The notes under the pieces: generated by a model
Database searches by the model: none
Told to the model about the DNA's origin: nothing
The model's input: only the letters and a program-made list of their open reading frames with translations
Assembly: GCA_013285585.1 (NCBI GenBank)
Contig: JABDHH010000002.1
Location: 8,198-72,197, forward strand
DNA: 64,000 bases
From: Chlamydiota bacterium
GTDB taxonomy: Bacteria; Chlamydiota; Chlamydiia; Chlamydiales; SM23-39
Direction: 5' to 3'
Program-made: the position numbers and the translations under genes
In this document: positions 29,632-56,434 of the stretch, piece after piece
How the letters are laid out: each line of letters starts with the position of its first letter
Position numbering within the stretch: the stretch's first letter is position 1

Positions 29632-31782
29632 GTGTTATGTAAGAAATCAATGGACGGTTATCTTTCTCCCCACTATTACGACCTGGTCACTCCGGACGGC
29701 CATATCGTCGATCTCAAGCGTTTGGATAACAAAAGGCGTGTCGCTACGGTCGCCATCTCCGGAATCTTCCCGGGTTTCGTCGGCTACGAGATCGATCCGC
29801 GCCTTGTGTTTTTCAATTTGAAAAGCACCCTCGCCCAAATTGGAATCGAAGGGATCGGCCGCGAGTTTCACTTAGACAGGAAACACAACCGGGCCGAGGT
29901 CAAAGTCGAGCTCATCCCATACGGCGATATCGCTTCGGCTATGCTGGATCTTCTTCCGGTAGGAGCCTACATCGGAAAACTGTTTGCCGCAGACGACCGA
30001 AGGCGAGTCCGAGATCCCGACTACCTTCTTCGGATGTCTTCCCGTTCCGACCAGGAAGGGCGCCCGCTTCTCTCTCTCGGCGGTCTCGAAGGCAGCCGAG
30101 AGCTGATCTTGGAAAAAAACAACGGCCGCACCGTCGCCTTCCTTTCTCTAAAAGACGGTACCCTCAGCTACGAGCCCGCCCTATTCGGGTTTCTCCCTAC
30201 CCTCGCCAAAGCCCTTCGCAAGAATTTGTCCCACACTCGCCAGCTTCTGCATCTCCACCATCATTGGCAAGCAGGAGCGCCCCGAATAGTACGCGAAAAC
30301 GAGATTCTTCTCGTCCGTACAGCCCCCCTCCATATCCGCACTGTATATGCCCGCGTCGTCAATTATCTGCTCCCTCAAGGCTATCATCACACATCTGCCT
30401 GCGTGCTGCAGCCCGATACGGCTGAATCGGGCGATATTTACGAACTTTACGGCAACAGTCTTCAGGTCATCGACGATCTTCCCCTCGAATTTTACACACT
30501 CGAACCGCACCGCGAGCACGTTTTCTTTTCCGACCGAGACCAACTGATCGCTTTGCTCGAAGATCCGCAAAGCCTTTTCAACGCCTTTGCCACCGCTCCC
30601 GGTCCATCGAGCGTTCTTGCTTCGGTCTTCCTTGTCAAAGGAACTCAGATGCTCGCTCTCCAAGAAAGCGATTGGATCGTTCGCGCCTCCCCCAAACACG
30701 ACTTCCCCGGCCTTATCGATCCATCCCGGCAAGCACTCATAACCGAAAAATATATCGAAAACCAACCCCAATACCCCTTTCTCAAAGCGATCGAAAACGG
30801 CTTCATCACCTCGCAAGGGATCCTTCTTTGCCGCCATTTCCCAACGCCCCTGTTGAAAAGGCTGCTCCTCAACGATCTCGTCGCCCGCTGCCTCAAACGA
30901 ATCTATTTCCAATACCCCTCTTTCTCTCACGACGGATTTTTTTTCCATGAAGACCGTTCTATGCTCCTCGATCTTGCCAAATTCGGCATCCCTGTCTATT
31001 GGGCCGAACCCGATGAGAAAACCCTTCTTCAATTCGTTCTCAGACCTGAAAAAGACGCAGGCCTTTTCGTCCCCATCCCCCTCATCGAGACATTCCGCAA
31101 AGCCACCGTCCTAGGAGTCTACGGATCGAATCTTCAGGAAGGAAGTTTCGGCATCGAGCTGCGCATTCTTCTCGCAGGGCTGCTCGCTATGCGTGCAGAA
31201 GTGGACCATCCTCTTCTTGGCCGCGATACTCCGCTCGCCCTCGTTACCGACGGCGGCCCGGGTGCGATGGAAGTCGGCAACCGCGTAGCGAAAGAACTCG
31301 GCATTCTATCCTGCGCCAACATCGTCGATTTCCGCGCTCGCGATGGCGCCGTCGTGAAAGAACAGCTCCAAAACCGTTATATCGATGCGAAGATGACCTA
31401 CCGCTTAGACCGGCTCGTCGAACGGCAAGCCGAGTTCTGTCTCGACCTACCTATTTTTGTTTCCGGCGGCATCGGCTTGGATTTTGAATATTCTCTGGAA
31501 GAAGTGCGGCGTAAAACTGGCTCAGCGCCAGCGAATCCGATCCTTCTCTACGGCAGCATAGATTATTGGAAGCGCAAAGTTTCTTCCCGATTCCGCTTGA
31601 ACAAAGAGACAGGGACAATCGCCGGCTCGGAATGGATCTCAAATTGTTTTTATTGCATCCAGACAGCCGCGCAAGGACTCGCGATCTACAGAAAATTTTT
31701 CAAAAACGAACTCCCGATAGGCAAGAAAGGCCCCGTATACGAAGATGGTTTTTATGCAATTGCCTCCATTGATCAAAAATAA
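29632..31782 (+). CDS. Large protein with a C-terminal LOG/PpnN-like (TIGR00730-type) nucleotide-binding domain
   Basis: 716 aa. The C-terminal third has VYGS..., TDGGPGAMEVGNRVAKELG and FVSGGIGLDFEYSLE (LOG GGGxGxM / PGGxGTxxE-like). I do not recognise the N-terminal ~450 aa. Confidence 0.55.
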   Translation: MLCKKSMDGYLSPHYYDLVTPDGHIVDLKRLDNKRRVATVAISGIFPGFVGYEIDPRLVFFNLKSTLAQIGIEGIGREFHLDRKHNRAEVKVELIPYGDIASAMLDLLPVGAYIGKLFAADDRRRVRDPDYLLRMSSRSDQEGRPLLSLGGLEGSRELILEKNNGRTVAFLSLKDGTLSYEPALFGFLPTLAKALRKNLSHTRQLLHLHHHWQAGAPRIVRENEILLVRTAPLHIRTVYARVVNYLLPQGYHHTSACVLQPDTAESGDIYELYGNSLQVIDDLPLEFYTLEPHREHVFFSDRDQLIALLEDPQSLFNAFATAPGPSSVLASVFLVKGTQMLALQESDWIVRASPKHDFPGLIDPSRQALITEKYIENQPQYPFLKAIENGFITSQGILLCRHFPTPLLKRLLLNDLVARCLKRIYFQYPSFSHDGFFFHEDRSMLLDLAKFGIPVYWAEPDEKTLLQFVLRPEKDAGLFVPIPLIETFRKATVLGVYGSNLQEGSFGIELRILLAGLLAMRAEVDHPLLGRDTPLALVTDGGPGAMEVGNRVAKELGILSCANIVDFRARDGAVVKEQLQNRYIDAKMTYRLDRLVERQAEFCLDLPIFVSGGIGLDFEYSLEEVRRKTGSAPANPILLYGSIDYWKRKVSSRFRLNKETGTIAGSEWISNCFYCIQTAAQGLAIYRKFFKNELPIGKKGPVYEDGFYAIASIDQK

Positions 31783-31818: not shown

Positions 31819-32802
31819 TCACTCTCGAAAATGCTTTTGAAACAAGCTACTATAATAGAGTGGTTTCGTCTTCTGATTTCTTAGATAGATTAGCGCAACC
31901 TTAGGAGATTGATCATGCTCCAAATTGTTTGACTCTGATTCTGGAAGCGTGAGTTCCTCTGGTTCTGGAAGCGTGAGTTCCTCTGGTTCTGGAAGCGTGA
32001 GTTCCTTTGGTTTTGGAAGCGTGAGTTCCGGCGGCGTCAAATCTGGAGAGGAATTTTCTTCTACCTCATCTTTAGGAGCAAAAAGTAAGTCTGAGTCCTC
32101 TTGATTATTCTCTAGGTCCAGGTTCCTACCGCTGTTAACCGGTGTAGAAGTTCGGCTTACAAACGGCGTTGAATATTGAGAATCTTCGAGCGATTCCTCT
32201 CTATGTTCAAATGATGCTTTTGGATTATAAAGTGAGTCTTCTTTCTCACTATCGGAGTCCTGATCCTCACCTTTTATGGCCGGCTCAGCAGCAGGAATAA
32301 GAGGAGCCACCCGCATGGATGATGAAAGAGGGATCCAACTTACTTGCCCTCCTTCCAGTTCCCAACTTACTTGCTGTTCTCGCAGTTGAGGGGGATCTTC
32401 TTGTGACCTACGGGAATGTGAGAAAGACCATTCCTTGTGGTTCGATTCCACACTCTCTTCACCTGAACCATGTTTAGAAGCAGAATCAAAAAGTGAATGT
32501 TTAGAAGCAGGATCAAAAAGTGAATTTGAGTCCTCTCGGCTATCCGCTAGGTAAGGAGGAGCGGGAGGTATCTGGGACATCTCCATAGAAGGAAGAGGGG
32601 AAATGATCCGGGCGGATACAGGAGAAGGAAGAGAAGCACGGTTTCCGCTTGGAGACCTTGCCTGAGAAGAGTTATAGACGTCTTGCACTACTGCCTCTGT
32701 ATTTGCACAAGAACCTGCCACAGAAGAGCCAGTCCTTATCATCTGAGGAGAACCTGAATTATTTCGATTACAACAGAAACAAGATAAACAAGAAAAAACC
32801 AT
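31819..32802 (-). CDS. Disordered S/P/E-rich protein with an N-terminal Cys cluster (family member 1)
   Basis: 327 aa. MVFSCLSCFCCNRNN with GGAGG RBS. Contains PEELTLPE and SLFD(P/S)ASKH tandem repeats. Confidence 0.6.
   Translation of the reverse strand: MVFSCLSCFCCNRNNSGSPQMIRTGSSVAGSCANTEAVVQDVYNSSQARSPSGNRASLPSPVSARIISPLPSMEMSQIPPAPPYLADSREDSNSLFDPASKHSLFDSASKHGSGEESVESNHKEWSFSHSRRSQEDPPQLREQQVSWELEGGQVSWIPLSSSMRVAPLIPAAEPAIKGEDQDSDSEKEDSLYNPKASFEHREESLEDSQYSTPFVSRTSTPVNSGRNLDLENNQEDSDLLFAPKDEVEENSSPDLTPPELTLPKPKELTLPEPEELTLPEPEELTLPESESNNLEHDQSPKVALIYLRNQKTKPLYYSSLFQKHFRE
31939..32030 (-). repeat. 24-bp in-frame tandem repeat (about 3.8 copies) encoding (P)EELTLPE
   Basis: Unit TTCTGGAAGCGTGAGTTCCTCTGG repeated head-to-tail. 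A second 27-bp x2 repeat lies at 32471-32524. Confidence 0.9.
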
Positions 32803-32953
32803 AAAAACCTCCAGAATTTACGGAGATTTTACAGAATCTTGACATTTTAATTCAACAGTCTTGGATGGACTGATCTATTCCAGACACCTTAAAAATAATT
32901 TTACGCCACTTGGCCGGCTTCAAGCACGTCCGTGCCAAGGACTGTTAAACTAG

Positions 32954-34084
32954 CTACGTTCTGCCATCCGGCAGCCGCTCCACCCATATTACTCTACCGT
33001 CCAGCAGCATCTCTTTCCAGTATATTCTCCCGTCCGAAGACCGTATTGTATCGTCCACTGACCTTAGGCTGCCGTTCTGAAAAACTTGATAGGGCTCCAA
33101 CTCACGTTCTCTGCGTTTTGGCTGGATTTGCCAAACCGTTTGAGTCCTCGCTTCCTCCTCATCATCGGACAAGATTTCTCGCCTTTCCCGGTATGGAGCC
33201 CGGACTCCATTCGATATATAAGGCGTCATTTGAGGCGCAGGCGGAGGGATTCTTTTCGTTTTATGCTTTGGAGGAGTGTCTTCACCTTCCTTCGCTCCGG
33301 AAGTCTCGCCTTTACCTGGCTTCTCGTCGGACAAGACAAAGTCAACCACTCTCCTCGCCAAATCTTCTTCATCATCGGAAGCACCTTCTCGGAAAACCCG
33401 AGAAGGATCCGCCTGAGACGTCGAAGTACTTTGAGGCAGGGACAAAGTGTCTCTTTCGAGTTCTGCTCCAAGTAAGTCTTTACAAGGAAGAGAGAGGGAG
33501 GGCATCGTCACCTGACTTGCCCTGTGAAACGGTTGCACTGAATCGTACGAGTCTTTTCGCAATCTCGGATGAGGAGCCTTGAGTCCGCTTGATATATAAG
33601 AAGAGGGCACGGGCGGCCGAGATGGAGGGACTCTTAGGAAAGTAAGGTTTTTCTCCGGTTTTTGCATTCCAGTATCGTCTCTGTAAGGAAGCGGGGCGAT
33701 GGGCATCGACCACACTTTCGACGATGCTGTTCCTACCTGCTTCAACATGTGAAAAGGTTGAACTGAATCGCAAGAGTTTTTTCGCGATGTTGGAGGAGCC
33801 TTGAGTCCGCTTGAAGAAGAGGTCACTGGAGGACAAGGCGGAGGGTTTTTCTGAGGCGGAAAGTTTCTCTCCATTTTTTTCCCTGGAGAATTTTTTGCCC
33901 ACATTCCGAAAGACTCTCGTAGGTCTAACTTGGGATTCGAGGAAGCCATTTCCTTTATCGCAACTGTTTTCACTCTCTCAGGCAAACGGCCAGAGTAAGG
34001 AGGAACGGGTATCCGCTCATTCCTTAACGCTGTTTCCGGCCTTATCGTGTGAGAAGATTTAAAGGAAGCAACACACATAGACAC
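32954..34084 (-). CDS. Disordered repeat protein, family member 2
   Basis: 376 aa (probable ATG at 34078 gives MCVASF...). Internal duplication SSGLKAP...DSVQPFH x2. Shares PPP.P.MTPYIS.GVRAP and VW.I.P motifs with member 3. Confidence 0.55.
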   Translation of the reverse strand: MSMCVASFKSSHTIRPETALRNERIPVPPYSGRLPERVKTVAIKEMASSNPKLDLRESFGMWAKNSPGKKMERNFPPQKNPPPCPPVTSSSSGLKAPPTSRKNSCDSVQPFHMLKQVGTASSKVWSMPIAPLPYRDDTGMQKPEKNLTFLRVPPSRPPVPSSYISSGLKAPHPRLRKDSYDSVQPFHRASQVTMPSLSLPCKDLLGAELERDTLSLPQSTSTSQADPSRVFREGASDDEEDLARRVVDFVLSDEKPGKGETSGAKEGEDTPPKHKTKRIPPPAPQMTPYISNGVRAPYRERREILSDDEEEARTQTVWQIQPKRRERELEPYQVFQNGSLRSVDDTIRSSDGRIYWKEMLLDGRVIWVERLPDGRT

Positions 34085-34156
34085 CTCTCGGAATTTACAG
34101 ATTAAATAAATTGTTTTTTAAGTTAAGAATAAGACACTGAAATTTTTTTTGCAATA

Positions 34157-34322
34157 GAGCCAGTTGCAAAACTCGCTTCGCTGCCCAAATTCGATGATTT
34201 CAAAGCCGGTTCGGTTTTTCGCAAATCGACATATCCTATTGGTCATAGGCGATTTGCGAAAAATCCGAATCCGGCGAAGAAAGCGCGGGTTTGGGTCCGA
34301 ATTGGAGTTTTGCAACTGGCTC
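34157..34322. repeat. 166-bp palindromic MITE-like element, copy A
   Basis: 18-bp terminal inverted repeats GAGCCAGTTGCAAAACTC / GAGTTTTGCAACTGGCTC. About 98 percent identical to 56435-56601. Nested internal inverted repeats (TTCGCAAATCG/CGATTTGCGAA). Confidence 0.85.
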
Positions 34323-34380
34323 AATACCTAATTCGAAAAATCTGAGGGGAAAGAACCCACAACTCCAAGCGTTCATTAGC

Positions 34381-35067
34381 TTAAGGTTCCTCCGTCTCTG
34401 TATGTGCCAGAGGGAAGAACCTAACACCTTGCGCTGAAATTTCATAGGGTCTGTCAGCAGGGCCTTGGCCTTGCCTTGGATGAATGTGCCAAACCTTTTG
34501 CGTTTTCACTACGCCCCCGGGTTCATCATCGGAATCGGAAGAGTCTTTTCGCGCTATCCGAGGAGGAGCCCGGACTCCCCTAGATATGTAAGGAGTCATT
34601 GCGGGAGAGGGAGGAGGAAGGTTTCTCTTGGTTTTTTGCGCTGAACCTCCTCCCTCTCCAGATCTTGAGGGTCCAGGTAGGTGTTGTTTGTCATCATCGG
34701 AAGAGATTCGCAACATTCCTTTTGGCTCTGGAGGAGAATTTTCTTCCATATCGGAGCCTATATCACGGTCTGGCGATTCCTCTCCGTAGCGAACCGGTAT
34801 CTTGTTTGACCATGGAGCGGAAGTCCTTGTGAACCCCGTTTTTGGCGGAGGAAAATCTTCTGCCCTCCCCTCTCCTGAAGACCGCCGTTGACTTGACCTG
34901 GACTCAGGGGAACCGCCAATTTCTCTTTTCGCAACCGATCCCACTCTATCTTCTAATGCAGAATATAAAGGCGAAGCCTCAACCGTAGAGGCGAGATGGC
35001 TCAAAGGACTATCGACAACATTCCGAGGACAACAACAGAAACAAGAAAACCAACACATAGGCACCAC
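34381..35067 (-). CDS. Disordered protein with an N-terminal CFCCC cluster, family member 3
   Basis: 228 aa (probable ATG at 35058 gives MCWFSCFCCCPRNVVDSPLSH...). The N-terminal ~45 aa are almost identical to member 4. Confidence 0.6.
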   Translation of the reverse strand: MVPMCWFSCFCCCPRNVVDSPLSHLASTVEASPLYSALEDRVGSVAKREIGGSPESRSSQRRSSGEGRAEDFPPPKTGFTRTSAPWSNKIPVRYGEESPDRDIGSDMEENSPPEPKGMLRISSDDDKQHLPGPSRSGEGGGSAQKTKRNLPPPSPAMTPYISRGVRAPPRIARKDSSDSDDEPGGVVKTQKVWHIHPRQGQGPADRPYEISAQGVRFFPLAHTETEEP

Positions 35068-35396
35068 TTCTGAAATTTATAGAAATAATAAAGATTCATT
35101 CTTTTTTCAGAAGAAAATATTGAAAGAGTCATTGCTATTCAGCTATTTAAATTTCTGTTGTTTTTTGAGTGGGTCGCAAAGCGGCCAAAAATAATCCTCA
35201 AAAGCGCCGAAGCTGAATTTTACAACACCCTCTAAACTCCGTAGGAGATGTTATACTGCGTGCGGCTGAGAAGTTAAAGTTATGCCAAAGAGGCGCCCTG
35301 AATTTGGCTCAGGTGCAGCCGGCGCCAAAGGCCAAAGGGGTTCTCCAAAAATGCATCATTTTTGGGGAGAGGCCGTTGCAGCTAAACTTAAAAAGT

Positions 35397-35855
35397 TTAG
35401 CGATGCCCGGGGTCGGGCAATTTTGCAAGCGGATTACTTTCATCATCAGTGGAAGAATCTTCCGAGCTCGCTTTATGTAGCTTCCATGGCCCGTTTTCGT
35501 TATCGTTATCGGGAGAGTCTATATCGGAAGAGTCTATAACGGAGTCTGGCGACTTCGCTCTGGATCCGTAGTCAAGTGGCACCTTGTTTGACCATCCAGC
35601 GCGAGCCTTTGTTAGCCTCTTTTTTGGCTCTGAAGAAGAATTTTCTTTCGTCCCCACTCCGGAAGCCAGCCGTTGACTTGACTTGGACTCCAGGGAGACA
35701 CCAATTTTATTTTGCGCAAACGATCCCACTCTATCTTCTAATGCAGGATATAAAGATGAAGCCTCAACCGTAGAGGCGATATGGCTCAAAGGACTATCGA
35801 CAACATTCCGAGGACAACAACAGAAACAAGAGAACCAAGATGAACACATAGGCAC
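35397..35855 (-). CDS. Disordered protein with an N-terminal CFCCC cluster, family member 4
   Basis: 152 aa (probable ATG at 35849 gives MCSSWFSCFCCCPRNVVDSPLSH...). The upstream ~110 bp leader is duplicated with member 3. Confidence 0.6.
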   Translation of the reverse strand: MPMCSSWFSCFCCCPRNVVDSPLSHIASTVEASSLYPALEDRVGSFAQNKIGVSLESKSSQRLASGVGTKENSSSEPKKRLTKARAGWSNKVPLDYGSRAKSPDSVIDSSDIDSPDNDNENGPWKLHKASSEDSSTDDESNPLAKLPDPGHR

Positions 35856-36129
35856 CCCTTCCGAAATTTATAGAAAATATAAAAACTCATTCTTTTTTTT
35901 AGAAGAAAAATTGAAGGAGTCCTTGCTATTCAGCAGGTTAAATTGCTGTCGTTTTTTGAGTGCTTTGGAAAGGGCAGCTCGCTGCAATCGCGCGTCCTTT
36001 AGGAACCGATTCAAGCGAGCTATAGGATTATTTGCAGTAAAGAACTTGCTGCCCATTGCTGGAGCGAAGAATCTTCTCTCCTTCTGAGAGAGTTCTTCAA
36101 ATGCGCCGCCCCCGGTTTTAGGACAGGTT

Positions 36130-37329
36130 CTAAAATCCGTAGGAGATGTTATATTCCATGTAGTGGTCGCGCATTTTCGAGAACTGCCCTTCGTACGAAT
36201 AGCCATGATGGTATTCGACATAAAACCGGAATTTGCGGCCGATTCCCTGTAATTTGCTGAACTCGTAACCTCCGCGGTACGTTCCGTCGAAATTCCAATC
36301 CAGCTCTTGCATGTTGCGGAAATGGAGCGTTAGATAGAGCGTTCCATACAACCTTTGCTTGTCGAATTTGGTCCCCAGGAAACGAACTTCAGTCCCATAT
36401 TCAATATACAGCGGCTTCCATCGAAACGTTGGATCGCTATGGACGATCACAGCCGGCCCAACATAAAGCCGGATCGCTTCTTTCGCTTGATAGGACACAA
36501 AGAAATCGATTACTTCGTTGCTTGGATTGACTCGATGGAACCCCGGGTGGTTGATTAAAAATTCATCCCCCAAATGGCTGGATACATGGAAGCCTCTGAG
36601 GCGAAACGACCACTTGTTTCGCGCGTAGGTGATGGGGATGCCCGCGTAAAAGTCCGTATTGACCAGCTCCGTGCCGCCGGCAATATCCGGGTGGGGATCG
36701 AAATTGAAGACTGACCAGATACACGCTTCGATCCCGATCTGCAGATCGCCTCCGTAGATCACATCGAGCCATCGATAAATGGGGAAGTCGTCGCCCAATG
36801 AAATATCGGCGCATTTGTTGCCGATGATCTCGTCTCCGCTCCGGTAACCCAAAGTATAGGAAATTACCCTTGGCGAGCCGATGATCGGCTGAAACAATTC
36901 TGTCATCTGGGGGAACCAGATTCCGTTGATCTTCGGACGCTCCACATACTTCACCCGAAGTTCTTCGTTTTCCGTAGGAACTTCCTCTAAGATCTGGACA
37001 TCTTTGACTCCGGGGACATCCTTGACGAATTGAATGATACTCTTCGCTGTTAATTCATTTTTGGGCAAGTTCGCCAGCCAGATGTGTTTATCTTTAGCGA
37101 TGACAATCACCCTGTATTCCGCGTAGTGCATGTCGATCAGAGCCTGGACGTAACCCTCGAAGTAGGCATCGGGCGCTTTTTCCACGCCATCGGGAATGCT
37201 GTCCGACCGAGTGAGCACGACGGCCACTTCCGATTCAATCGGAAGCTCGTCTATTTGACTGTCAGTAGAAAAACCAGAGCCGGAGAAGAGAATGCAGAAA
37301 ACAACGGCTCCCGATTGGAGTGCACGCAT
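36130..37329 (-). CDS. Putative outer-membrane beta-barrel protein with an N-terminal BON-like region
   Basis: 399 aa. Signal peptide MRALQSGAVVFCILFSGSGFS. Alternating amphipathic strands. C-terminal ...YNISYGF with terminal Phe, typical of OMPs. Confidence 0.55.
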   Translation of the reverse strand: MRALQSGAVVFCILFSGSGFSTDSQIDELPIESEVAVVLTRSDSIPDGVEKAPDAYFEGYVQALIDMHYAEYRVIVIAKDKHIWLANLPKNELTAKSIIQFVKDVPGVKDVQILEEVPTENEELRVKYVERPKINGIWFPQMTELFQPIIGSPRVISYTLGYRSGDEIIGNKCADISLGDDFPIYRWLDVIYGGDLQIGIEACIWSVFNFDPHPDIAGGTELVNTDFYAGIPITYARNKWSFRLRGFHVSSHLGDEFLINHPGFHRVNPSNEVIDFFVSYQAKEAIRLYVGPAVIVHSDPTFRWKPLYIEYGTEVRFLGTKFDKQRLYGTLYLTLHFRNMQELDWNFDGTYRGGYEFSKLQGIGRKFRFYVEYHHGYSYEGQFSKMRDHYMEYNISYGF

Positions 37330-38849: not shown

Positions 38850-38922
38850 GGGGCAATAGCTCAGCGGTTAGAGCAGCGGACTCATAACCCGTCGGTCTCT
38901 GGTTCAAATCCAGGTTGCCCCA
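38850..38922 (+). tRNA. tRNA with CAU anticodon (Met, or Ile2 if lysidine-modified); island integration site
   Basis: Acceptor GGGGCAA/TTGCCCC; D-arm TAGCTCAGCGGTTAGAGC; anticodon loop CTCATAA; T-arm CTGGTTCAAATCCAG. Overall similarity to ileX-type tRNAs. CCA is not encoded. Confidence 0.88.
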
Positions 38923-39086
38923 TCTCCATAACCAGCACAATCCACTGCACTTAAGGCGCATTCAGCTTGATCCAATATCAAGTTAAAGTTTAAAATATAC
39001 GCCGACGGTGCAATGGCGGTGCAACAAAGAATAATCTTAACCGGCAGCGCCATCCAACCCAAAACCGTTAACCCAAGGTTGGAATC

Positions 39087-40157
39087 ATGGCATCTATTTT
39101 CAAACGCAAAAACGAAGACGGAACGACCGTCTGGCGCGCGGTCGTCCGCATCAAGGGCTACCCTACCGTCTGCAATCATTTCGAACGCAAACAGGAAGCT
39201 GACGATTGGGCGAAGGACGTCGAAAGAAAGATCAAACTCGGCGAATTCAAGTTCGACCAACATAATCAAATCCGCACCTTTGCTGAACTTACGGATCGCT
39301 ACATCCAAGACGGCGCCCTTGAACACCATCGTTCAGCCGACGATACCAATCGCCATCTCGCCTACTGGAAAACCCGTCTAGGCGCCTACGCCCTCGTTCA
39401 CATCACTCCTGAACTTCTCGGAAAAGAGCGCCAGTTCCTCATCGATACTCCAACACCCAAGGGACGTAAACGAACGTCTTCCACAACGAACCGCTACTTC
39501 GCCTCCCTCTCCTCTCTTCTCACCTACGCGGCCCAACATCTTCGCTGGATCAGCGAGAATCCAGCTCTCCGCCTCATCAAACTCAAAGAGAACCCAGGTC
39601 GCGATCGCGTCCTGACGGAAGACGAGATCGCTCGCCTTCTTTCCGCCTCACGCACAAGCAAATCCCCTTATCTCTATTGCATCATCATCCTTTCTCTCAC
39701 GACCGGCGCTCGTCAGGGAGAAATCCTCAATCTCGAATGGAAACATATCGATTTCGAAAACAAAATCGCCTACATCAAGCAAAGCAAAAACGGCCGTCCT
39801 CGTAGCATCGCACTCTCTGATCCCGTTGTAGCCGAACTGCGCCGCCTCTACGATCTACGCAATCCGCAAAAACCTCTCGTATTCGCTAGCAAGACTGCCT
39901 TCGGCCGCATCGACATCAAAAAAGCCTGGCAACAAGCTCTCAAACGCGCCTGCATCACAAATTGCCGGGCCCACGACATGCGCCACACTTTTTGCACTTA
40001 CGCCGCGGCAAAAGGAGCCTCCAATCTCCAGTTACAAACCGCCACGGGTCATCGCACTTTGTCGATGCTCCTCCAATACACACACATGGACGTAGAAGTC
40101 ACAAAACAGTTCAGTAACCAAATCTCGAACCAGATCCTGAAAGGAGAATCCCCATGA
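39087..40157 (+). CDS. int: Tyrosine-type site-specific integrase
   Basis: 356 aa. SAM-like N-domain and catalytic residues in TGARQGE (R), AHDMRHTF (HxxR) and GHRTLSMLLQYTH (H...Y). Confidence 0.93.
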   Translation: MASIFKRKNEDGTTVWRAVVRIKGYPTVCNHFERKQEADDWAKDVERKIKLGEFKFDQHNQIRTFAELTDRYIQDGALEHHRSADDTNRHLAYWKTRLGAYALVHITPELLGKERQFLIDTPTPKGRKRTSSTTNRYFASLSSLLTYAAQHLRWISENPALRLIKLKENPGRDRVLTEDEIARLLSASRTSKSPYLYCIIILSLTTGARQGEILNLEWKHIDFENKIAYIKQSKNGRPRSIALSDPVVAELRRLYDLRNPQKPLVFASKTAFGRIDIKKAWQQALKRACITNCRAHDMRHTFCTYAAAKGASNLQLQTATGHRTLSMLLQYTHMDVEVTKQFSNQISNQILKGESP

Positions 40158-40293
40158 ATCACGAATTGGTCCAACAACTTGTTGGCCAATTGTCGTTACG
40201 CGATACGACAATTGCCGCAGCTCCCAACATGGTAAGGATGTGGTACTTAAAAACAGGTTTACACAAACGTTACCAAAATGGTAACTTTTATAC

Positions 40294-40872
40294 ATGAGCA
40301 CAAGAAGTAAGCTTTTTGAAATAGCCGACCGTCAGCAAGGCTTTTTTACCACACGACAGGCGCAAGAATGCGGAATCTCACGCTCTCATTTTCATCGCAA
40401 ACTACTTTCTGGAGAATGGATAAAGGAGTTGAGAGGTATTTATCGCCTAGCTCACTACCCTGCCACCGATCGACCGGAACTTGTTCTTTGGACTCTTTGG
40501 AGCCGAGATAAAAAGGATCATCCCCAGGGGGTATGGTCCCATGATACAGCTCTCGATATTCATGATCTAAGCGACAACATGCCTTCGAAAATGCATATGA
40601 CTGTCCCGCTCCGATTCCGAAAACAAATCGCAATTCCTAAAGCGATCAAACTCTATTTTGCAAGCCTTTCCAAAAGCGACATCGAAATTTGTCAAGGATA
40701 TCGAGTCACCACACCCCTTCGCACTTTACTCGATGTAATTGCAGAAGGAAAAATTTCTCCAGACTTGATTGCTCAAGCAATACGTGAAGGACTGCGAAAA
40801 GGGATTCTTCTTCTTCGCGACGTAAATCAAACACCCCAACTTTTGAAATATAAACATGAATACAAAATTTAA
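40294..40872 (+). CDS. AbiEi-family (type IV TA) antitoxin / transcriptional regulator
   Basis: 192 aa. N-terminal winged-helix pattern LFEIADRQQGFFTTRQAQECGISRSHFHRKLLSGEWIKELRGIYRL, typical of AbiEi_4. Overlaps the toxin gene by 17 nt. Confidence 0.75.
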   Translation: MSTRSKLFEIADRQQGFFTTRQAQECGISRSHFHRKLLSGEWIKELRGIYRLAHYPATDRPELVLWTLWSRDKKDHPQGVWSHDTALDIHDLSDNMPSKMHMTVPLRFRKQIAIPKAIKLYFASLSKSDIEICQGYRVTTPLRTLLDVIAEGKISPDLIAQAIREGLRKGILLLRDVNQTPQLLKYKHEYKI

Positions 40873-41716
40873 AACTGCCGGAGCTTTCCGCACAAGCCTT
40901 GAAGCTCGCCTCAAGAATTTAGCTATTTCAACTGGCGAAGACCTCCAACGCCTTCGTCGCAAAGTCGCATTCGACCGATTCCTCGCAAGGATTTTCTCTC
41001 AAGAAAAACCGAAGTTTTTTCTCAAAGGTGGATATGCAATGGAATTGCGCATCGCCCATGCCCGAGCTACGAAAGACATTGACCTGACCTGCATTCGACG
41101 AGTGAAAAATGAAAACGAGCTTTTAAGTGAACTGATCTTAATCGATCTTCAAGACCTTTCTCAGCAAGATCTGAACGATCATTTCATCTATCAAGTTGGA
41201 AAGGCCCAGATCGACCTGGAAAACGCCCCATATGGAGGCGCCCGATATCCGGTTTCATCCTTGATCGGCGAGAAAATCTTTGTTCGCTTCCAGCTAGATG
41301 TAGGCGCCGATTTCCTTCTCGATCAGATTGAAACAATTCAAGGTTCCAACTGGCTTGAATTTTGCGGGGTTCCTGCACCGGTTATTCCCATGATTTCCAT
41401 TGAACAACAGTTCGCTGAAAAACTGCACACTTACACCTTGATTCGCGGTCAGAGAGTCAATTCCCGTGCAAAGGATCTAATCGATATGGTTCTTCTATTG
41501 AACATGAAAATTCCCAAGCCCGATGAAATGCTTCGCGCACTGCAAAAAGTCTTTAAAAAGCGCGATACCCATCCGCTACCGCAGAGATTAGACCCGCCGC
41601 CGAAAGAATGGAAATCTCAATTTATCAATATGGCAGCCGAGTGCGGTCTCACTCAGGATATGCAAGAGAGCTTCGAGAAAATATCAGACTTCTTCAATCG
41701 CATTATCACCATCTAG
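40856..41716 (+). CDS. AbiEii/AbiGii-family nucleotidyltransferase toxin
   Basis: 286 aa. FFLKGGYAMELR...ATKDIDL nucleotidyltransferase-fold motifs characteristic of AbiEii. Confidence 0.75.
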   Translation: MNTKFKTAGAFRTSLEARLKNLAISTGEDLQRLRRKVAFDRFLARIFSQEKPKFFLKGGYAMELRIAHARATKDIDLTCIRRVKNENELLSELILIDLQDLSQQDLNDHFIYQVGKAQIDLENAPYGGARYPVSSLIGEKIFVRFQLDVGADFLLDQIETIQGSNWLEFCGVPAPVIPMISIEQQFAEKLHTYTLIRGQRVNSRAKDLIDMVLLLNMKIPKPDEMLRALQKVFKKRDTHPLPQRLDPPPKEWKSQFINMAAECGLTQDMQESFEKISDFFNRIITI

Positions 41717-41731
41717 TGCAAAGGAATTCTC

Positions 41732-41848
41732 ATGAACAGCGCAAACGATCCTCTCGAAAAAGCGAAAGAAGTCCTCTGGCAAAAACTACAGCAAGCGATA
41801 GCACAAGCATGGCATCGGCTGGATGATGGTATTTTGAGGACACGATGA
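41732..41848 (+). CDS. Possible 38-aa small ORF coupled to the downstream gene
   Basis: Below the ORF-track cutoff. ATG with an AAAGGA RBS. Its stop overlaps the next start as ATGA (41845-41848). Product: MNSANDPLEKAKEVLWQKLQQAIAQAWHRLDDGILRTR. Confidence 0.3.
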   Translation: MNSANDPLEKAKEVLWQKLQQAIAQAWHRLDDGILRTR

Positions 41849-42537
41849 CAGGTAGACCTCCTGCTCAAAATGACTGTCTTGGAGGAATACTGTATCGTTC
41901 TCTATTTCCCACGGAAGAAGATCGTTATAAGGGATATTTCAAAGAGGATTGGTGGTCGCTTGAGGAATTTGCCTGTTTAATGGCTGGGACGATTCCTGAA
42001 GTCTATCAGGGGATATTGGCAAAGAATGAAAAATACATGAACCTCAAAAATATCAAAAGAGCGCTTGAAGCGAACAAGATCTTTCGACGTTTTTTGAGCG
42101 AAATTGAGGAGATACGTGTGACGGATGAAATTCGCCATGATCAAAACTACGCGATGTCATCTTGGCGTTTTATGAAGTGGGCGGCGATTAAGGATTTGCC
42201 GATTAAACGGCGTTTTTTGGATGCTCTGCCTTTTCCCCTCCTCGAAATTTTCTTGGAGTTTTTATCTGAAAACTCTCCATTACACACAAAGCCAAAATCC
42301 AGTCAGGCATATCATAGAGCCCTCTACTTGAAAGCTGCCAAAAATTTGGTCGGCAAATTTGAATACAGGCTAAGCAGAGACGAAATCTATGATCATCCAC
42401 GTATGCAGAGCGCTCTTCGTCAGATCAGAGCTCTTGGAGGTCACTACAAGAAAAGGACGATCACAGATGCATGGCTGGCCCAATTGGAAGAGCGCAAGAA
42501 AGGCCGTCCAAAAAAGAAGGAATTAATCGAAAAATGA
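41845..42537 (+). CDS. Hypothetical island protein
   Basis: 230 aa. No motif recognised. Confidence 0.5.
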   Translation: MTGRPPAQNDCLGGILYRSLFPTEEDRYKGYFKEDWWSLEEFACLMAGTIPEVYQGILAKNEKYMNLKNIKRALEANKIFRRFLSEIEEIRVTDEIRHDQNYAMSSWRFMKWAAIKDLPIKRRFLDALPFPLLEIFLEFLSENSPLHTKPKSSQAYHRALYLKAAKNLVGKFEYRLSRDEIYDHPRMQSALRQIRALGGHYKKRTITDAWLAQLEERKKGRPKKKELIEK

Positions 42538-42672
42538 AGTACACAAGGGATCAATTAAATACAGTGTCAATACCTCTCTAAAAACCATCTCCTCTATGTA
42601 GAAAAATACAGTCTCTAATCCGGCCTTAAAAAAATCCAGTATCATTGAGCTTAATCCAAGGAGTTGAACTAA

Positions 42673-42879
42673 ATGGAAGCTTATACTTACTGGTCCCCTC
42701 AACAAATTGTATCAAGCGGGCGATATCCTTTTACGATGGGTCAGATCCGCCATCTGCTTCTCTACCGGCATAGGAACAATCTTGAAAAAGTAGTGAGAAA
42801 AGTCGGTAAACGTCTTGTTTTCAGAATGGATTTGTTCGATCAATGGATTGAAGAACAAGCCTCCCAGTCATCCCGATAA
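42673..42879 (+). CDS. AlpA/excisionase-like helix-turn-helix protein
   Basis: 68 aa. ...FTMGQIRHLL...VRKVGKRLVFRMDLFDQWIEEQ matches the short MerR-superfamily excisionase pattern (G-R/K-x-x-F...W). Confidence 0.6.
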   Translation: MEAYTYWSPQQIVSSGRYPFTMGQIRHLLLYRHRNNLEKVVRKVGKRLVFRMDLFDQWIEEQASQSSR

Positions 42880-44602
42880 CGAGGTTTTTGTGGAATTTCA
42901 TTCCTTTATAGAAATCCTCGAAACAAAAACGGCTAAATCTCTGAAAAAAACAGGTTCTGGCTTCATGGCTTGTTGCCCAGCTCATGACGATGATAATCCG
43001 AGCCTTTCGGTTAGAGAAGGATGCGATGGGAAAATTCTCTTAAAATGCTTTACTGGGTGTCCCCTAGACGCTATATGCGCTGCGCTTGGTCTAGAAGTAT
43101 CCGACCTGTTCGAATCCGATTTCTCTTCCAAAAACTCCATGACACGAACCGTCTATTCCTACACAGATGAAGATGGCCGCGAACTCTATCGAAAAATCCG
43201 TATTGAACCGGGCTACGACGGCAAAGCAAAAAGCTTCTACTCGGAACGTGTCGATGAAAACGGTCAGATCATTCGAAGCCTCCAAGGATGCCGCAGGATT
43301 CTTTACCGGCTGCCAGAGGTCCTGAAAGGGATTGCCGAAGGCAAAACAATTTATCTTGTCGAAGGGGAGAAAGATGCCGATAACCTCCATTCCATCGGCC
43401 TTGTTGCAACGACTTCTCCAGAGTCTCTCAAATGGTCCGATGAATTCACGGAATCCCTCAAGGGGGCTGACGTAGTCATCCTCTACGACATGGATGAGAC
43501 AGGGCTGAAGCGAAAAGAGATTCTCTGCAAGAGCCTTGCTAACAGGGTAAAACGGCTCCGGGTTGTCGATCTCCCCGGACTCGAATTCCAGAAATCCCAC
43601 GGTCCTGATGTCAGTGATTGGTTGATGCGGGGGCATATGACCGAGGAGCTCATTGAGCTCACTGAGAAAACGTCCGATTACAGACTTGCGGAACCTACTA
43701 GTAGAATCCGTGCCGTTACCCTCGATGAGTTTCTCCTGATGGAATTGCCTAAGCGGGAGATGATTCTATCGCCCTTCTTGCCTTCGCAAGGACTTGGCCT
43801 TCTTTACGCTAAACGGGGGGTGGGGAAAACTCACGTCGCACTCGGGATTGCCTATGCGGTAGCCACGGGAGGAGCCTTCTTGAAATGGCAAGCTCCCAAG
43901 CCGCGAAAGGTGATCTACATTGACGGCGAGATGCCGGCGCCTGCAATGCAGGAGAGATTGAAACGTATTTCAGTGGGCGAAGATCTGAAGCCGCCTGATC
44001 CTACCTACCTCCGCCTGGTGACACCCGATTTGCAAGAGGGCCCAATGCCCGATCTTTCTTCCAAAGAAGGAAGAGAGGCTCTCGAACCACTCATCGTCGA
44101 TTGCGATTTAATCATCATCGATAACATTTCGACCCTTTTTCGCAGCGGCGATGAGAATGAGGCGGAGAGCTGGCAACCCATTCAAGATTGGGGCTTAAGC
44201 CTACGCAAAAGAGGAAAGTCAATCCTTTTTGTCCATCATGCAGGCAAAAGCGGCCAGCAAAGAGGAACCAGCAAAAAAGAAGATACCCTCGATGTAGTGA
44301 TCAATTTGAAGCCCCTGCAAGGGCACTCTTTGGAAGAGGGAGCGGCTTTTGAGGTCATTTTCGAGAAGACGCGTAATTTCGCCGGCGAGGGAGCTGCCGA
44401 TTTCCAAGTTCGCCTTCGAGTTCAAGACGATGGTCTTTGGAAATGGGAAATAGAAGAACCGGAAGTCGATCCGGAGGTCGTAGCAGTGGCACAATCCTGC
44501 AAAGAGGGGTTGACCATCGACCAGATCAGAAAGAAAACCGGGCTCACCAAGTCGCAGGTTGAAACAAGAAAGGGAAAAGCTAAAAAACAAGGACTTATAT
44601 GA
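42815..44602 (+). CDS. P4-alpha-like DNA primase (CHC2 zinc finger + Toprim) fused to a RepA/AAA_25-type ATPase
   Basis: CCPAHDDDNPSLSV...KCFTGC zinc finger. Toprim IYLVEGEKDADNL and VILYDMDETG. Walker A KRGVGKTH, Walker B LIIIDNIS. The probable true start is the GTG at 42890 (RBS GAGG), just after the upstream stop. Confidence 0.85.
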   Translation: MFSEWICSINGLKNKPPSHPDNEVFVEFHSFIEILETKTAKSLKKTGSGFMACCPAHDDDNPSLSVREGCDGKILLKCFTGCPLDAICAALGLEVSDLFESDFSSKNSMTRTVYSYTDEDGRELYRKIRIEPGYDGKAKSFYSERVDENGQIIRSLQGCRRILYRLPEVLKGIAEGKTIYLVEGEKDADNLHSIGLVATTSPESLKWSDEFTESLKGADVVILYDMDETGLKRKEILCKSLANRVKRLRVVDLPGLEFQKSHGPDVSDWLMRGHMTEELIELTEKTSDYRLAEPTSRIRAVTLDEFLLMELPKREMILSPFLPSQGLGLLYAKRGVGKTHVALGIAYAVATGGAFLKWQAPKPRKVIYIDGEMPAPAMQERLKRISVGEDLKPPDPTYLRLVTPDLQEGPMPDLSSKEGREALEPLIVDCDLIIIDNISTLFRSGDENEAESWQPIQDWGLSLRKRGKSILFVHHAGKSGQQRGTSKKEDTLDVVINLKPLQGHSLEEGAAFEVIFEKTRNFAGEGAADFQVRLRVQDDGLWKWEIEEPEVDPEVVAVAQSCKEGLTIDQIRKKTGLTKSQVETRKGKAKKQGLI

Positions 44603-45540
44603 CAAATCAACAAATTTCCGATTTTCCGATTCTCATAGAAAAAGAAGAAATCGGAAATGGGAAAAAGGAGGCAAAAATGACGACTGAAAAACAATTGAAT
44701 GCAAACCGCTTGAATGCCTTGCAGTCCACGGGGCCAAAAACAGACGAAGGCAAGGCAATCGTTTCCTCAAATGCTATGAGGCATGGCATTTTCACCAAGG
44801 ATTTGATCATTTCTTCCCACCTCGGTAAAGAAGACGAGAGGGAGTACATAGAAATGTTAACCAATCTGATAGGCTGTCTCGCTCCGCAGAATCAAATGGA
44901 AAGCTTGCTGGTCGAAAAAATCGCAATCGATTTTTGGAGACTGCGACGTGTGATACGATTTGAAGCCGGAAGCATTGGAAAATACCTTGAGACGATCTTC
45001 AACGATTTCTACTCCTACCCAAGAAAAACCAACAAGAAAATCGATACAGAAATAGAGGGGAAAAAGAAATATCTTGAATGGCTCTCTTCCTATATGGAAT
45101 GTCTCAAAAAGGAAGAAGTAAGCTTTGATCAACCTATGTGGGAAGGAGAAGCGATTGAAAGCGATATTCTCGAGGACTTCTATCTCATCATCAAAACCAT
45201 AGACACCATCCCATATGCGGAGAAAGAGAAATTGTTGTACGGCGACAGTAGTTTCGCGCAGTTGAAAAAGATTCTGGAGCAGCATGGATATTCTTCGAAA
45301 AAAGAAATTTCCGCAAAGCTCATTGAGGTCTCTGCACAACAAAGACGGCAGCTCGAAGAAGAAATTGAGAAATTAGAGCACGAAAGAGTCGCCAATATCG
45401 AGGCTGACAAGCTCAATAGAATGCTTGGGACGCTTCCCCAAGAAGACAATACAGAAAAAATCCTAAAGTATGAGCGGTCTATACAAAAGTCGATTTTTCA
45501 AAATCTCTTCCTATTGAAGAAGCTGCAAGGGTCGTTCTAG
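44599..45540 (+). CDS. Hypothetical coiled-coil island protein
   Basis: Probable start is the ATG at 44677 (AAGGAGG RBS), giving MTTEKQLNANRLNALQSTGPKTDEGKAIVSSNAMRHGIF... The rest is helical and charged. Confidence 0.5.
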   Translation: MTNQQISDFPILIEKEEIGNGKKEAKMTTEKQLNANRLNALQSTGPKTDEGKAIVSSNAMRHGIFTKDLIISSHLGKEDEREYIEMLTNLIGCLAPQNQMESLLVEKIAIDFWRLRRVIRFEAGSIGKYLETIFNDFYSYPRKTNKKIDTEIEGKKKYLEWLSSYMECLKKEEVSFDQPMWEGEAIESDILEDFYLIIKTIDTIPYAEKEKLLYGDSSFAQLKKILEQHGYSSKKEISAKLIEVSAQQRRQLEEEIEKLEHERVANIEADKLNRMLGTLPQEDNTEKILKYERSIQKSIFQNLFLLKKLQGSF

Positions 45541-45646
45541 AAAATGGGTTTGTTTTGGAAAAAATGCTTCGACTTTGTTCATAGCTTGCGACTCAAGGAT
45601 TATCAACCCCGATCTTTCGTTGATCCCCAGCAATGATTTCAGCCAA

Positions 45647-46768
45647 TTAGTCAGTCCGTAGTAAATCGATCATTTCTTTGACTGAATCCACGATGATCTG
45701 AGGCTGATTGAGCGTCACCATGTGGTCGCTTTCCTCGGCAAAAATCTGCTTCCCTCGCGTCGATTTGGTCACAAGATCTTTTTGAAGCTCTTTGAAGGGA
45801 ATATGAATAGCATCAATTTGCTCCTGAGTAAGACCACTGCCCTCCACAGAGATCGCTTTGACGGCTGAGATAACGATGAGCAGCTTATCGCCTAGATGAC
45901 CGCCTGCGGCTTTCAGTTGATCGCAACTAGTTTTGAAATGGGATGATTCTTGAAGGACAGTGCGCATGAACTTTGTAGTACGCAATTGAGCCAGGAGCTG
46001 CTTTTGGACTTGTTCCGGGAAAGCTGCAACAACGCCTTTCTTATACATTGCCGTATGAGTGAAAAGACGAATGATTCCAAGATGGGTAGCAAGCATCATC
46101 ATGGTAGGATGCAACTGCGGCCTGGGTATTTTTTCATATTGATCTTCATGAGCGGAATCGACAAGAACGACGCCAAGTACTTTATCTGGGTGCAGACTCG
46201 CAAAAAGACGCATATCGAGTCCTCCGAAGGAATGCCCCACTAGGATGTAGGGGCCCGGGATATTCGCCTTGCAGAGAGCAGTATGAAGCTCGGTAACGAT
46301 GTTTTGGCTAGTCCTTTCTAGAGGGCTTTCATCGCTCCAGCCATTGCCTGGCCGATCAAATGAGGTGACTCGGGTAAATTTGGCGATCTCTGGTTGAACA
46401 AGTGACCACCCGAGGGCATTGCAACCCAGCCCAGCATCGAGAACAACGGTCGGTCCACCCGTGCCTGTAGTGTAGAGATGCATATTGTAACCGCCGACAT
46501 CGACAAGCTTGCCAATGGGTGGATATTTCTTGGCATCGATTTTTGTGCTCACTACCTGATAGAGAGCTCCGCTAATAGCAAGCGTAGCGAGGGTACCGGC
46601 CAGGCCAAGCCCTACCCATTTAGTCCAGTTCCAAAACATAAGTGATTTCCCTGAAGTAGTCTGACTGTTAATTGCGGAGTGAAATGAATGAGTCTGCGGC
46701 CGAACGATCCGGCTTGACCCGAGAATGCTCGTCGAGAAAGAACGGAAAATATTTTTCAAACTATTCAT
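45647..46768 (-). CDS. Alpha/beta-fold hydrolase with an N-terminal TM anchor
   Basis: 373 aa. Nucleophile elbow GHSFGG; HTTGTGGPTVVLDAG oxyanion region; C-terminal DH. Confidence 0.8.
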   Translation of the reverse strand: MNSLKNIFRSFSTSILGSSRIVRPQTHSFHSAINSQTTSGKSLMFWNWTKWVGLGLAGTLATLAISGALYQVVSTKIDAKKYPPIGKLVDVGGYNMHLYTTGTGGPTVVLDAGLGCNALGWSLVQPEIAKFTRVTSFDRPGNGWSDESPLERTSQNIVTELHTALCKANIPGPYILVGHSFGGLDMRLFASLHPDKVLGVVLVDSAHEDQYEKIPRPQLHPTMMMLATHLGIIRLFTHTAMYKKGVVAAFPEQVQKQLLAQLRTTKFMRTVLQESSHFKTSCDQLKAAGGHLGDKLLIVISAVKAISVEGSGLTQEQIDAIHIPFKELQKDLVTKSTRGKQIFAEESDHMVTLNQPQIIVDSVKEMIDLLRTD

Positions 46769-47547: not shown

Positions 47548-47562
47548 AAATAGTCTCCCGGA

Positions 47563-47585
47563 TTGTATATATTACCAGAATACAA
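47563..47585. promoter_or_regulatory. Candidate MerR operator palindrome
   Basis: TTGTAT-N11-ATACAA perfect dyad, 16 nt upstream of the merR-family start codon. Confidence 0.35.
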
Positions 47586-47862
47586 CATTACGTTACGTCA
47601 ACTGCAACAGGCATTTATTAAAAAAAATACGATAGAGAAACTAACTTTCTATTACCATCTCAATTAAAGTTTGGACAAGAAATGGTTATTTTTTCTCAAA
47701 GAATCAGCAGACTAAGGCTATTTGGCATAGTGAGGGGTAAGTAGATGCACGTACTTTGGACTTTAGAGATCAATGGGGCCCGTTCCATGGCATGCCCTAT
47801 ACAAGAATCCTTATGGACGATATTGAGAGAAACCGATCAAAAGTCATAGCTTGTGCAACAAA

Positions 47863-48624: not shown

Positions 48625-48912
48625 AAAATTTTTTAGACGGACTCCGTTTTTTTGGAATAAAAAGATTTTTTCTCACTTTGTAATGTAAGTAAAAAATTTC
48701 ACACAACTACAATAATTAACTTCAGAATGACTTAATAACACAAAGTACAGTAGCATAATTTAGGATAAAAAACGAAATTGAAAAAATAATTGATATCCAG
48801 GACTTCCCTGTGCTACGGAAAGAAAAAATAGGAGAAGGAAGCGAGAACTTGGCCAAGCCGAGCATCATGCGCAACCTATTGATCCTAAAGTAGCTTTTAA
48901 GGGAAAAATACA

Positions 48913-55170: not shown

Positions 55171-55244
55171 ATTTATATTAAGTGACTTACGTTAGTTACA
55201 AATTGAAGATGAGAAAATTTGGGAAATGATGCGGGAGTCTTCAA

Positions 55245-56424: not shown

Positions 56425-56434
56425 ATTCTCATAA

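Follow-up and report, generated by a model that had tools for sequence, protein, structure and literature searches.

Clusters of Cys residues with hydrophobic flanks at the extreme N-terminus, as in GAP-43 (MLCCMRR) and PSD-95 (MDCLCIV), are classic sites of S-acylation, and in these proteins and in cysteine-string protein the N-terminal cluster alone is sufficient for membrane targeting. Among bacterial effectors, SspH2, SseI, GobX and LpdA are targets of host S-palmitoylation (PMC4951486, PMC5780409), and N-terminal acylation motifs coexist with type III secretion (T3S) signals in AvrRpm1/AvrPto and in SspH2/SseI (PMC4951486, PMC5780409). Here we analyse a 64 000-nucleotide stretch of Chlamydiota DNA (the window), in which positions 31819-35855 hold four successive minus-strand open reading frames (ORFs), m1-m4, three of which begin with a string of Cys residues. 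Judged by sequence comparison, m1-m4 are lineage-specific, very fast-evolving, intrinsically disordered paralogues occupying a slot between two conserved convergent genes, and it is plausible that they are host-lipidated proteins injected by the bacterium. No chlamydial effector using host S-palmitoylation is reported in the reviews and full-text literature that we searched, where CteG is only speculated to be covalently modified.

The ORF list and translations give the following layout, in which m1-m4 are flanked by a conserved gene for a protein of 716 amino acids (aa) and by a DUF1207 gene:

29632-31782, plus strand: 716-aa gene, conserved in chlamydiae, the first anchor of the variable slot; it matches nothing in Pfam or NCBIfam.
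31819-32802, minus strand: m1, 327 aa, N-terminus MVFSCLSCFCCNRNN, with both tandem repeats inside; a 100% identical protein, P0015, is in NCBI/JGI, and orthologues are on contigs L002 and L085.
32954-34078, minus strand: m2, 374 aa, N-terminus MCVASF, no Cys cluster; orthologues are P0003 (cut at the end of its contig) and L084:4455-5309.
34381-35058, minus strand: m3, 225 aa, N-terminus MCWFSCFCCCPRN, with a C-terminal module; P0001 in NCBI/JGI is 100% identical, and P0012 is an orthologue.
35397-35849, minus strand: m4, 150 aa, N-terminus MCSSWFSCFCCCPRN, a truncated 5' duplicate of a P0012-like gene; P0002 in the protein collection.
36130-37329, minus strand: DUF1207 gene (Pfam PF06727, E = 7.8e-64), the second anchor.

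A purine-rich Shine-Dalgarno sequence (GGAGG, GAGAGGTG, GAAGTGGTG, GGAAGGGGTG) stands ahead of every ATG, in agreement with the four consecutive minus-strand genes and N-termini proposed by a first-pass annotation of the sequence. The same annotation had placed a Cys cluster at the start of all four proteins, which is right for m1, m3 and m4 and wrong for m2. The Cys lie at positions 5, 8, 10 and 11 of m1, 2, 6, 8, 9 and 10 of m3, and 2, 8, 10, 11 and 12 of m4, so that the first 12 residues hold every Cys of m3 and m4 and four of the five in m1. By inspection, these four to five Cys within residues 2-12, flanked by W, F and L, fit an S-acylation context, which m2 does not. The string is the best-conserved part between the distant paralogues m1 and m3/m4, and it is retained in P0012, the orthologue of m3, which starts MCSCWFSCFCCCPRD.

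The slot itself provides a further comparison. In four other metagenome-assembled genomes (MAGs), ORFs of the same strand in the slot, otherwise dissimilar, also begin with Cys clusters:

L007, slot ORFs: N-termini MSIKGCCDCLWRCF and MSCISRICDCLCGCL.
L012, slot ORF: N-terminus ..MIRCCCGG.
L019, slot ORF: N-terminus MGICSLFSCCF.
L025, slot ORF: N-terminus MKIGSLFCCCA.

At least three Cys in the first 15 residues were found in 9 of 109 slot ORFs, a count to which the window contributes three ORFs and L061 a false positive due to a signal peptide, against 21 of 2540 ORFs elsewhere (Fisher odds ratio 10.8, p = 1.7e-6). The same-strand ORF of L029, which starts MFSCCVGK, has two Cys and thus falls below the threshold and outside this count. 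That the Cys string recurs in dissimilar ORFs of the same slot is new support for its being functional. The ORFs of L012 and L019 in addition carry an acidic cluster followed by ΦxxIx[PE][KR] (DDDEGEILCVMQIHEREK and DSDDEGGGRFCSICPRK), which resembles SDDEEEARTQTVWQIQPKR in m2; in its loose form the motif occurs 46 times in 2.5 million six-frame residues, and about 0.009 occurrences would be expected in these ORFs where two are observed. The pattern across loci is thus, as far as these sequences show, one in which an N-terminal Cys string and a C-terminal short motif persist while the intervening sequence drifts.

Other Cys-rich ORFs came to light in the same set of loci. One, among the Cys-cluster ORFs of L007 (12851-13111), is an 86-aa ORF with 14 Cys spread throughout, metallothionein-like in appearance. 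Upstream of the 716-aa gene in L082 (491-2236), a 581-aa coiled-coil protein starting MLTFPSLVGRCCCCSRSKK is a candidate N-terminal Cys-string protein. The Cys-cluster ORF of L019 contains, in frame (aa 42-81, EPRPKGRGMIWEEFRTPPKFGCELPGPKGPGFRRP), an element of about 120 nucleotides (nt) with three hairpins (L019:5235-5354, and again at 1-152). Elsewhere in the L019 MAG its peptide recurs at about 90% identity inside LptF/G, DAHP synthase, TrmB and a SAM methyltransferase, and the element resembles the palindromic elements of Rickettsia, which enter genes by in-frame insertion. Most matches in a search with the L019 ORF came from this repeat and not from homologues, and the search is uninformative on its Cys string.

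Beyond the string, the proteins offer little hydrophobic sequence. In charge-hydropathy terms all of m1-m4 lie beyond the boundary, on the side of disordered proteins, with 67-70% of residues polar or disorder-promoting, and their maximum 19-residue Kyte-Doolittle means (0.52-0.99) are too low for a membrane span; the Cys string of about 10 residues is their only hydrophobic stretch. AlphaFold gave a mean predicted local distance difference test (pLDDT) score of 47 for m2, rising to about 80 for aa 340-374, with a small beta unit (aa 331-368) as the sole confidently predicted part, and of 53 for m3, with no domain in what was a single-sequence, and hence weak, prediction. These results agree with the initial description of m1-m4 as low-complexity, disordered proteins, as do the repeats, both of which lie in frame in m1:

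31933-32029, minus strand: 24-bp unit, 4.0 copies, ELTLPxPx (Tandem Repeats Finder, 95% matches, score 173; first put at 3.8 copies).
32470-32525, minus strand: 27-bp unit, 2.1 copies, SLFDxASKH (Tandem Repeats Finder, 96% matches).

The internal duplications that had also been proposed are present in m2, where 33510-33592 is repeated at 33735-33814 (unit PPxP..SSGLKAP..DSVQPFH).

At the other end of the chain, m2 and m3 have a C-terminal module in common, KTKRxPPPxPxMTPYISxGVRAPxR..SDDEEE..TQxVWxIxP(K/R), which bears out, as KTKRxPPPxPxMTPYISxGVRAP and TQxVWxIxP, the blocks noticed on first reading:

33113-33262, minus strand: C-terminal conserved module of m2, KTKRIPPPAPQMTPYISNGVRAPYRERREILSDDEEEARTQTVWQIQPK, with invariant columns in alignments A3 and A4; the best-matching stretch of the profile search.
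34471-34638, minus strand: C-terminal conserved module of m3, KTKRNLPPPSPAMTPYISRGVRAPPR..SSDSDDE..TQKVWHIHPR.

By eye the module does not fit WH2 (IxxGxxLKKV), PPxY or FFAT, and a canonical LIR ([WFY]xx[LIV]) was rejected with the W out of register in both proteins. A class I SH3 ligand, RxxPxxP, fits by eye in m2, P0003 and a 167-aa protein of L002, and not in m3; the module is assigned to none of these motifs.

Set against the described systems, the window proteins resemble SspH2 and SseI of Salmonella (and IpaH members of Shigella), T3S effectors that host DHHC enzymes S-palmitoylate on an N-terminal Cys. The likeness lies in their coming from intracellular bacteria, in a Cys placed among the first ~10 residues, where it overlaps the region of the T3S signal, and in the proposed anchoring to host membrane (PMC4951486, PMC5780409). 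In those effectors, however, a single conserved Cys9 sits in a folded, homologous domain joined to an enzymatic domain, whereas here a string of 4-6 Cys heads a disordered, domain-free chain whose acylation is only proposed; Pfam, NCBIfam and profile searches found no similarity to the SspH2/SseI N-terminal translocation/palmitoylation domain or to GobX. Pseudomonas syringae effectors of the AvrRpm1/AvrB/AvrPto/AvrPphB type (MGC...) likewise combine an extreme N-terminal acylation motif with a T3S signal, and the L019 ORF, MGICSLFSCCF, starts MG-x-C. The window proteins differ from these in having no Gly2 and in their likely hosts, protists and not plants; N-myristoylation is therefore not possible and they would rely on S-acylation alone. 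With GAP-43, PSD-95 and cysteine-string protein they have in common Cys clustered at the very N-terminus between hydrophobic flanks, but this likeness is compositional only, the genes are bacterial, and the string is followed by P-R-N or N-R-N in place of a basic patch.

Legionella GobX and LpdA offer the parallel of an intracellular bacterium of amoebae that exploits host palmitoylation for organelle targeting (PMC5780409), although their Cys are internal or C-terminal, both are enzyme-bearing proteins secreted by the type IV (Dot/Icm) system, and no homology links them to m1-m4. Tarp and TepP are chlamydial, mostly disordered, tandemly repeated and polymorphic in length, features seen here too, and act via short linear motifs (PMC4951486). 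They work by way of Tyr-phosphorylated repeats and actin-binding elements, whereas no such motif, no WH2 match in Pfam and no homology to them was found in m1-m4, and YISxGVRAP is off the WH2 consensus by eye. Tarp and TepP are not known to have an N-terminal Cys string. Several familiar protein classes were tried and rejected for m1-m4: Inc proteins, for lack of a bilobed hydrophobic domain of ~40+ residues (the hydropathy maximum being 0.52-0.99); bacterial lipoproteins (Lgt/Lsp), since the Cys begin at residue 2-5 with no basic n-region, 10-15-residue h-region or lipobox [LVI][ASTVI][GAS]C; and OmcA/OmcB-type proteins, since there is no signal peptide, m1, m3 and m4 have zero or one Cys beyond residue 12, and no family match was found.

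Several observations indicate that m1-m4 are real genes. Between m2/m3 and the orthologous contigs L084 and L002, which differ by 12-23% of nucleotides, 20 of 20 internal indels are multiples of three, including those of 120, 135, 162 and 288 nt, and the probability that the frames would have stayed open under random substitution is 0.0006-0.03. The frames of m1-m4 are the sole stop-free frames of the region (150-374 codons) and remain open in relatives at 12-38% nucleotide divergence. A leader of about 90 nt upstream of each gene is homologous in m1-m4 and five orthologues, with the blocks GAATAGCA and TCTnTAAATT followed by the Shine-Dalgarno sequence:

32803-32900, minus strand: leader of m1, homologous to the other three (alignment A5).
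34079-34176, minus strand: leader of m2, the same homologous leader (alignment A5).
35059-35181, minus strand: leader of m3, 77% identical to that of m4 (alignment A5).
35850-35972, minus strand: leader of m4, the same homologous leader (alignment A5).

Mean column identity over the nine leaders of alignment A5 is 65%, which exceeds that of the coding regions (about 20% aa identity for m1 vs m3), and it is this common leader that marks m1-m4 as true paralogues. Its conservation suggests that the four genes are co-regulated, and it may be a common promoter, operator or 5' untranslated element; the leaders do not fit the sigma-54 or sigma-28 consensus by eye, and a scan for promoter and terminator consensus sequences gave counts at or below shuffle expectation. 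On these comparisons m1-m4 are coding but overall very weakly constrained.

Their rate of change stands out against the flanking genes. The ratio of non-synonymous to synonymous substitution (dN/dS) is 0.54-0.82 for m1-m3 and 1.2 for m4 (vs P0012), against 0.04 for the DUF1207 gene and 0.13 for the 716-aa gene at the same divergence, and orthologues differ by in-frame indels of 120-288 nt and by repeat number. Together with the few matches found in databases, this upholds the earlier view of a rapidly evolving family. Recent duplication is also visible: m3 and m4 match over 205 nt at 87% identity (about 68 codons) and over 153 nt at 77% reaching about 120 nt upstream, a longer homology than the ~45 codons and ~110 bp of leader first noticed. 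In L084 the single gene P0012, which encodes 425 aa with three copies of an internal unit of about 40 aa, stands in place of m4 and m3, and the duplication is therefore lineage-specific. Two features mark its edges, the first of them already recognized in the first-pass annotation as a copy of the 3' end of the downstream outer-membrane protein gene:

35218-35262, minus strand: 45-nt copy of the end of the DUF1207 gene, from its final codons through the stop (YNISYGV-stop), 80% identical to 36116-36160, at the edge of the m4/m3 segmental duplication.
35282-35420, no strand assigned: three to four perfect hairpins, clustered at the junction of the duplication (fold energy -60.7 kcal/mol; e.g. 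CTCCCCAAAAATG/CATTTTTGGGGAG and CTAAACTT/AAGTTTAG).

The hairpin cluster supplies the last 12 codons and stop of m4, which looks like a truncated, possibly decaying duplicate. Related hairpin copies lie in intergenic DNA of L012 (6728-6805) and L014 (6728-6801), and the cluster may be a small repeated or mobile element.

The family has a very narrow distribution. A profile built from m2, m3 and P0003 found only seven proteins, all lineage-specific, among 1.84 billion cluster representatives, and word-indexed searches returned the same few. No relatives were found in 185 579 species genomes (alignment A3; 510 pattern matches, none related) or in a metagenome scan with the N-terminal patterns WFSCFCC and CPR[ND]VVDSP; C-terminal patterns retrieved one contig of the JGI collection, already known. 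Neither m1 nor m3 had an exact match in the contig index, although both proteins are present in the protein collection. The anchors are far more widespread: species-representative genomes contain 182 relatives of the 716-aa protein, with up to 80% identity, mostly in MAGs of Chlamydiae, Parachlamydiales, Rhabdochlamydiaceae, Waddliaceae or Simkania. In most of 80 related chlamydial loci the 716-aa and DUF1207 genes are convergent and adjacent, with a variable insert in a subset. The 716-aa protein is phylum-wide (58-80% identity across Chlamydiota, its gene almost always convergent with DUF1207). Five MAGs deposited as Verrucomicrobia/Verrucomicrobiota (L019, L026, L042, L055 and L065) carry this chlamydial gene pair at 60-70% identity and are probably Chlamydiota.

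What these proteins might do can be outlined as follows. Our preferred interpretation, held tentatively and at somewhat less than even chances, is that they are secreted effectors anchored to host membrane by host S-acylation of the Cys string, a modification that we infer from its resemblance to eukaryotic N-terminal S-acylation motifs. The proteins would be exported into a eukaryotic host, presumably through the chlamydial type III system, whose signal is also N-terminal; all known Chlamydiae possess a type III secretion system (PMC6925127). Host DHHC acyltransferases would then S-acylate the Cys string, the acylated string would pin the disordered chain to a host membrane, and the C-terminal short linear motif would engage a host partner. 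On such a scheme m2 would be an unanchored variant and m4 a recent truncated duplicate of uncertain function. A bolder proposal, and one that we consider doubtful, is that this is the first host-lipidated effector family of the Chlamydiota, clade-wide and positionally conserved in the 716-aa/DUF1207 slot. Selection would act only on the N-terminal poly-Cys string, as a mimic of eukaryotic anchors of the GAP-43/PSD-95 type, and on a C-terminal acidic-ΦWxIxP(K/R) docking motif, with a drifting, repeat-expanding disordered tether between them. The result would be a minimal effector that displays a motif from a lipid anchor and whose turnover proceeds through duplication and truncation.

A number of results weigh against host-lipidated effectors. 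Within the window there is no type III secretion gene or chaperone, and m1-m4 have no Pfam/NCBIfam family at E <= 0.1 / 0.01 and no homology to any known effector or lipidated protein. The single Cys of m2, at position 2, is a Tyr in its L084 orthologue (which starts MYVSSF), and the m1 orthologues, starting MVFSCLSGLWCNRN and MVSSCLSCLWCKRN, keep only two to three of the four Cys, so the string is dispensable or variable in part of the family. L005 and L009, the closest GTDB relatives (77-80% identity), have an empty slot, which makes the family patchy, and among the Cys-cluster ORFs of other MAGs several are short, at 76-98 aa, and lack annotation. Six-frame codon-usage log-odds for m1-m4 are -0.08 to -0.14, vs +0.29 for conserved genes, and no better than those of the other frames; this probably reflects their S/P/E-rich composition and neither supports nor excludes coding. 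Values of dN/dS near 1 and the non-genomic codon usage would also fit weakly selected or decaying ORFs.

Some of these points can be read in other ways. If m1-m4 are secreted disordered effectors whose string is not lipidated, the Cys could form a secretion signal or chaperone-binding part, a metal-binding site (Zn, Cu or Fe-S), a redox disulfide or oligomerization patch, or a weak membrane-insertion tip. The strings do lie among W, F and L residues exactly at the position of a T3S signal, their number and spacing vary freely between orthologues, as would be tolerable for many functions, and the neighbouring ORF in L007 (12851-13111) is Cys-rich throughout in the manner of a metallothionein. 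We nevertheless think this unlikely: CxxC/CxxH-type spacing typical of metal sites is missing, Cys are absent from the rest of the proteins (save the fifth of m1), leaving no partner ligands or disulfide partners, and S-acylation sites, for which no strict consensus exists, typically show a variable number of Cys in a hydrophobic context (PMC4951486). Proteins that stay in the bacterial cell, either elementary-body proteins disulfide cross-linked into the envelope or nucleoid or small disordered regulators or scaffolds, would be a further option. Chlamydial elementary bodies depend on disulfide cross-linked, Cys-rich proteins; the genes adjoin an outer-membrane-type DUF1207 gene, and the well-conserved common leader suggests co-regulation that is possibly stage-specific. 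Such a role is nonetheless improbable, since the proteins have neither a Sec signal peptide nor a lipobox, and hence no envelope route, nor any transmembrane segment. In OmcA/OmcB-type proteins Cys are spread throughout and not N-terminal only. Nor would one expect housekeeping or structural proteins to combine a dN/dS of 0.5-1.2 with very large in-frame indels and a distribution at the level of a genus.

The locus could also be a hot spot of recombination and duplication whose ORFs, young or decaying, are under weak selection, with Cys strings and motifs that are inherited, functionless remnants, and this would apply at least to m4, which is cut by the hairpin element and has a dN/dS of 1.2. 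We give this idea little credence. Its dN/dS range (0.54-1.2), with substitutions even over the three codon positions, the codon-usage score, the empty slot in the nearest relatives and the lack of promoter or terminator enrichment all accord with decay. Against this, all 20 indels are in frame and the ORFs stay open against expectation; every paralogue and orthologue keeps the start codon, the Shine-Dalgarno sequence and the leader; and the N- and C-terminal motifs are kept between paralogues of about 20% identity, as they are between MAGs whose neighbouring genes share 66-73% identity. The first-pass annotation had itself raised the prospect that opposite-strand ORFs are the real genes, and long antisense ORFs do exist, such as 32932-33582 (216 aa) and 35282-35539 (85 aa). 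This has a negligible chance of being right and was rejected: the antisense ORFs are broken up differently in L002 (157, 95, 98 and 105 aa) where the sense ORFs stay full-length, and each gene span is interrupted by 4-21 stops in the plus-strand frames. None of the antisense ORFs is preceded by the conserved leader with its Shine-Dalgarno sequence, the 85-aa ORF falls in the hairpin element, and the public gene calls P0001, P0002, P0011 and P0015 are exact minus-strand proteins.

The window encodes, besides the genes above, a V-type ATPase, rpoB/C, NusG and EF-Tu, and the assemblies in which exact or near-exact relatives occur are from soil and other environments; from these matches the source is evidently an environmental (soil) chlamydia. 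The original suggestion of an intracellular bacterium with a eukaryotic host is reasonable given the V-type ATPase and the best matches of the 716-aa protein in Chlamydiae/Parachlamydiales MAGs, and the lineage to which m1-m4 belong is obligate-intracellular. An Rfam scan of the window found only three tRNAs.

Elsewhere in the window, the region 38850-56500, where GC content falls to 0.39-0.46, looks like a tRNA-integrated genomic island with restriction and defence cargo. It starts with a tRNA (38850-38922) followed by a phage-type integrase (39087-40157) and an AbiEi/AbiEii toxin-antitoxin pair. Its further genes encode a primase-like Zn-ribbon/AAA_25 protein, a MerR/TipAS regulator, a PD-(D/E)XK nuclease, a C5 DNA methylase (48913-49908), a GHKL-ATPase protein and an Mrr-ResIII helicase. 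At the low-GC edge of the island, 55491-56219 encodes an Rce1-like membrane protein of the CAAX-protease family (CPBP), which is probably a CPBP protease of the ordinary bacterial kind.

On the comparative evidence the Cys string looks functional, while each mechanistic step built on it is one that we infer. Effectors of environmental chlamydiae are almost entirely unknown, and the locus illustrates how an effector repertoire may turn over, by segmental duplication that carries along a piece of a neighbouring gene, hairpin truncation and repeat-length change within a fixed slot. If the proposed lipidation is true, m1-m4 would represent host-lipidated effectors with an unusual multi-Cys N-terminal string lacking Gly2 and a domain-free, disordered body. 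Should the Cys string be acylated, they would exemplify effectors pared down to a pair of short linear motifs joined by a drifting linker, the host target could be sought through the conserved C-terminal motif, and an N-terminal poly-Cys string combined with disorder would provide a simple signature for mining effectors in the MAGs of uncultured Chlamydiota.

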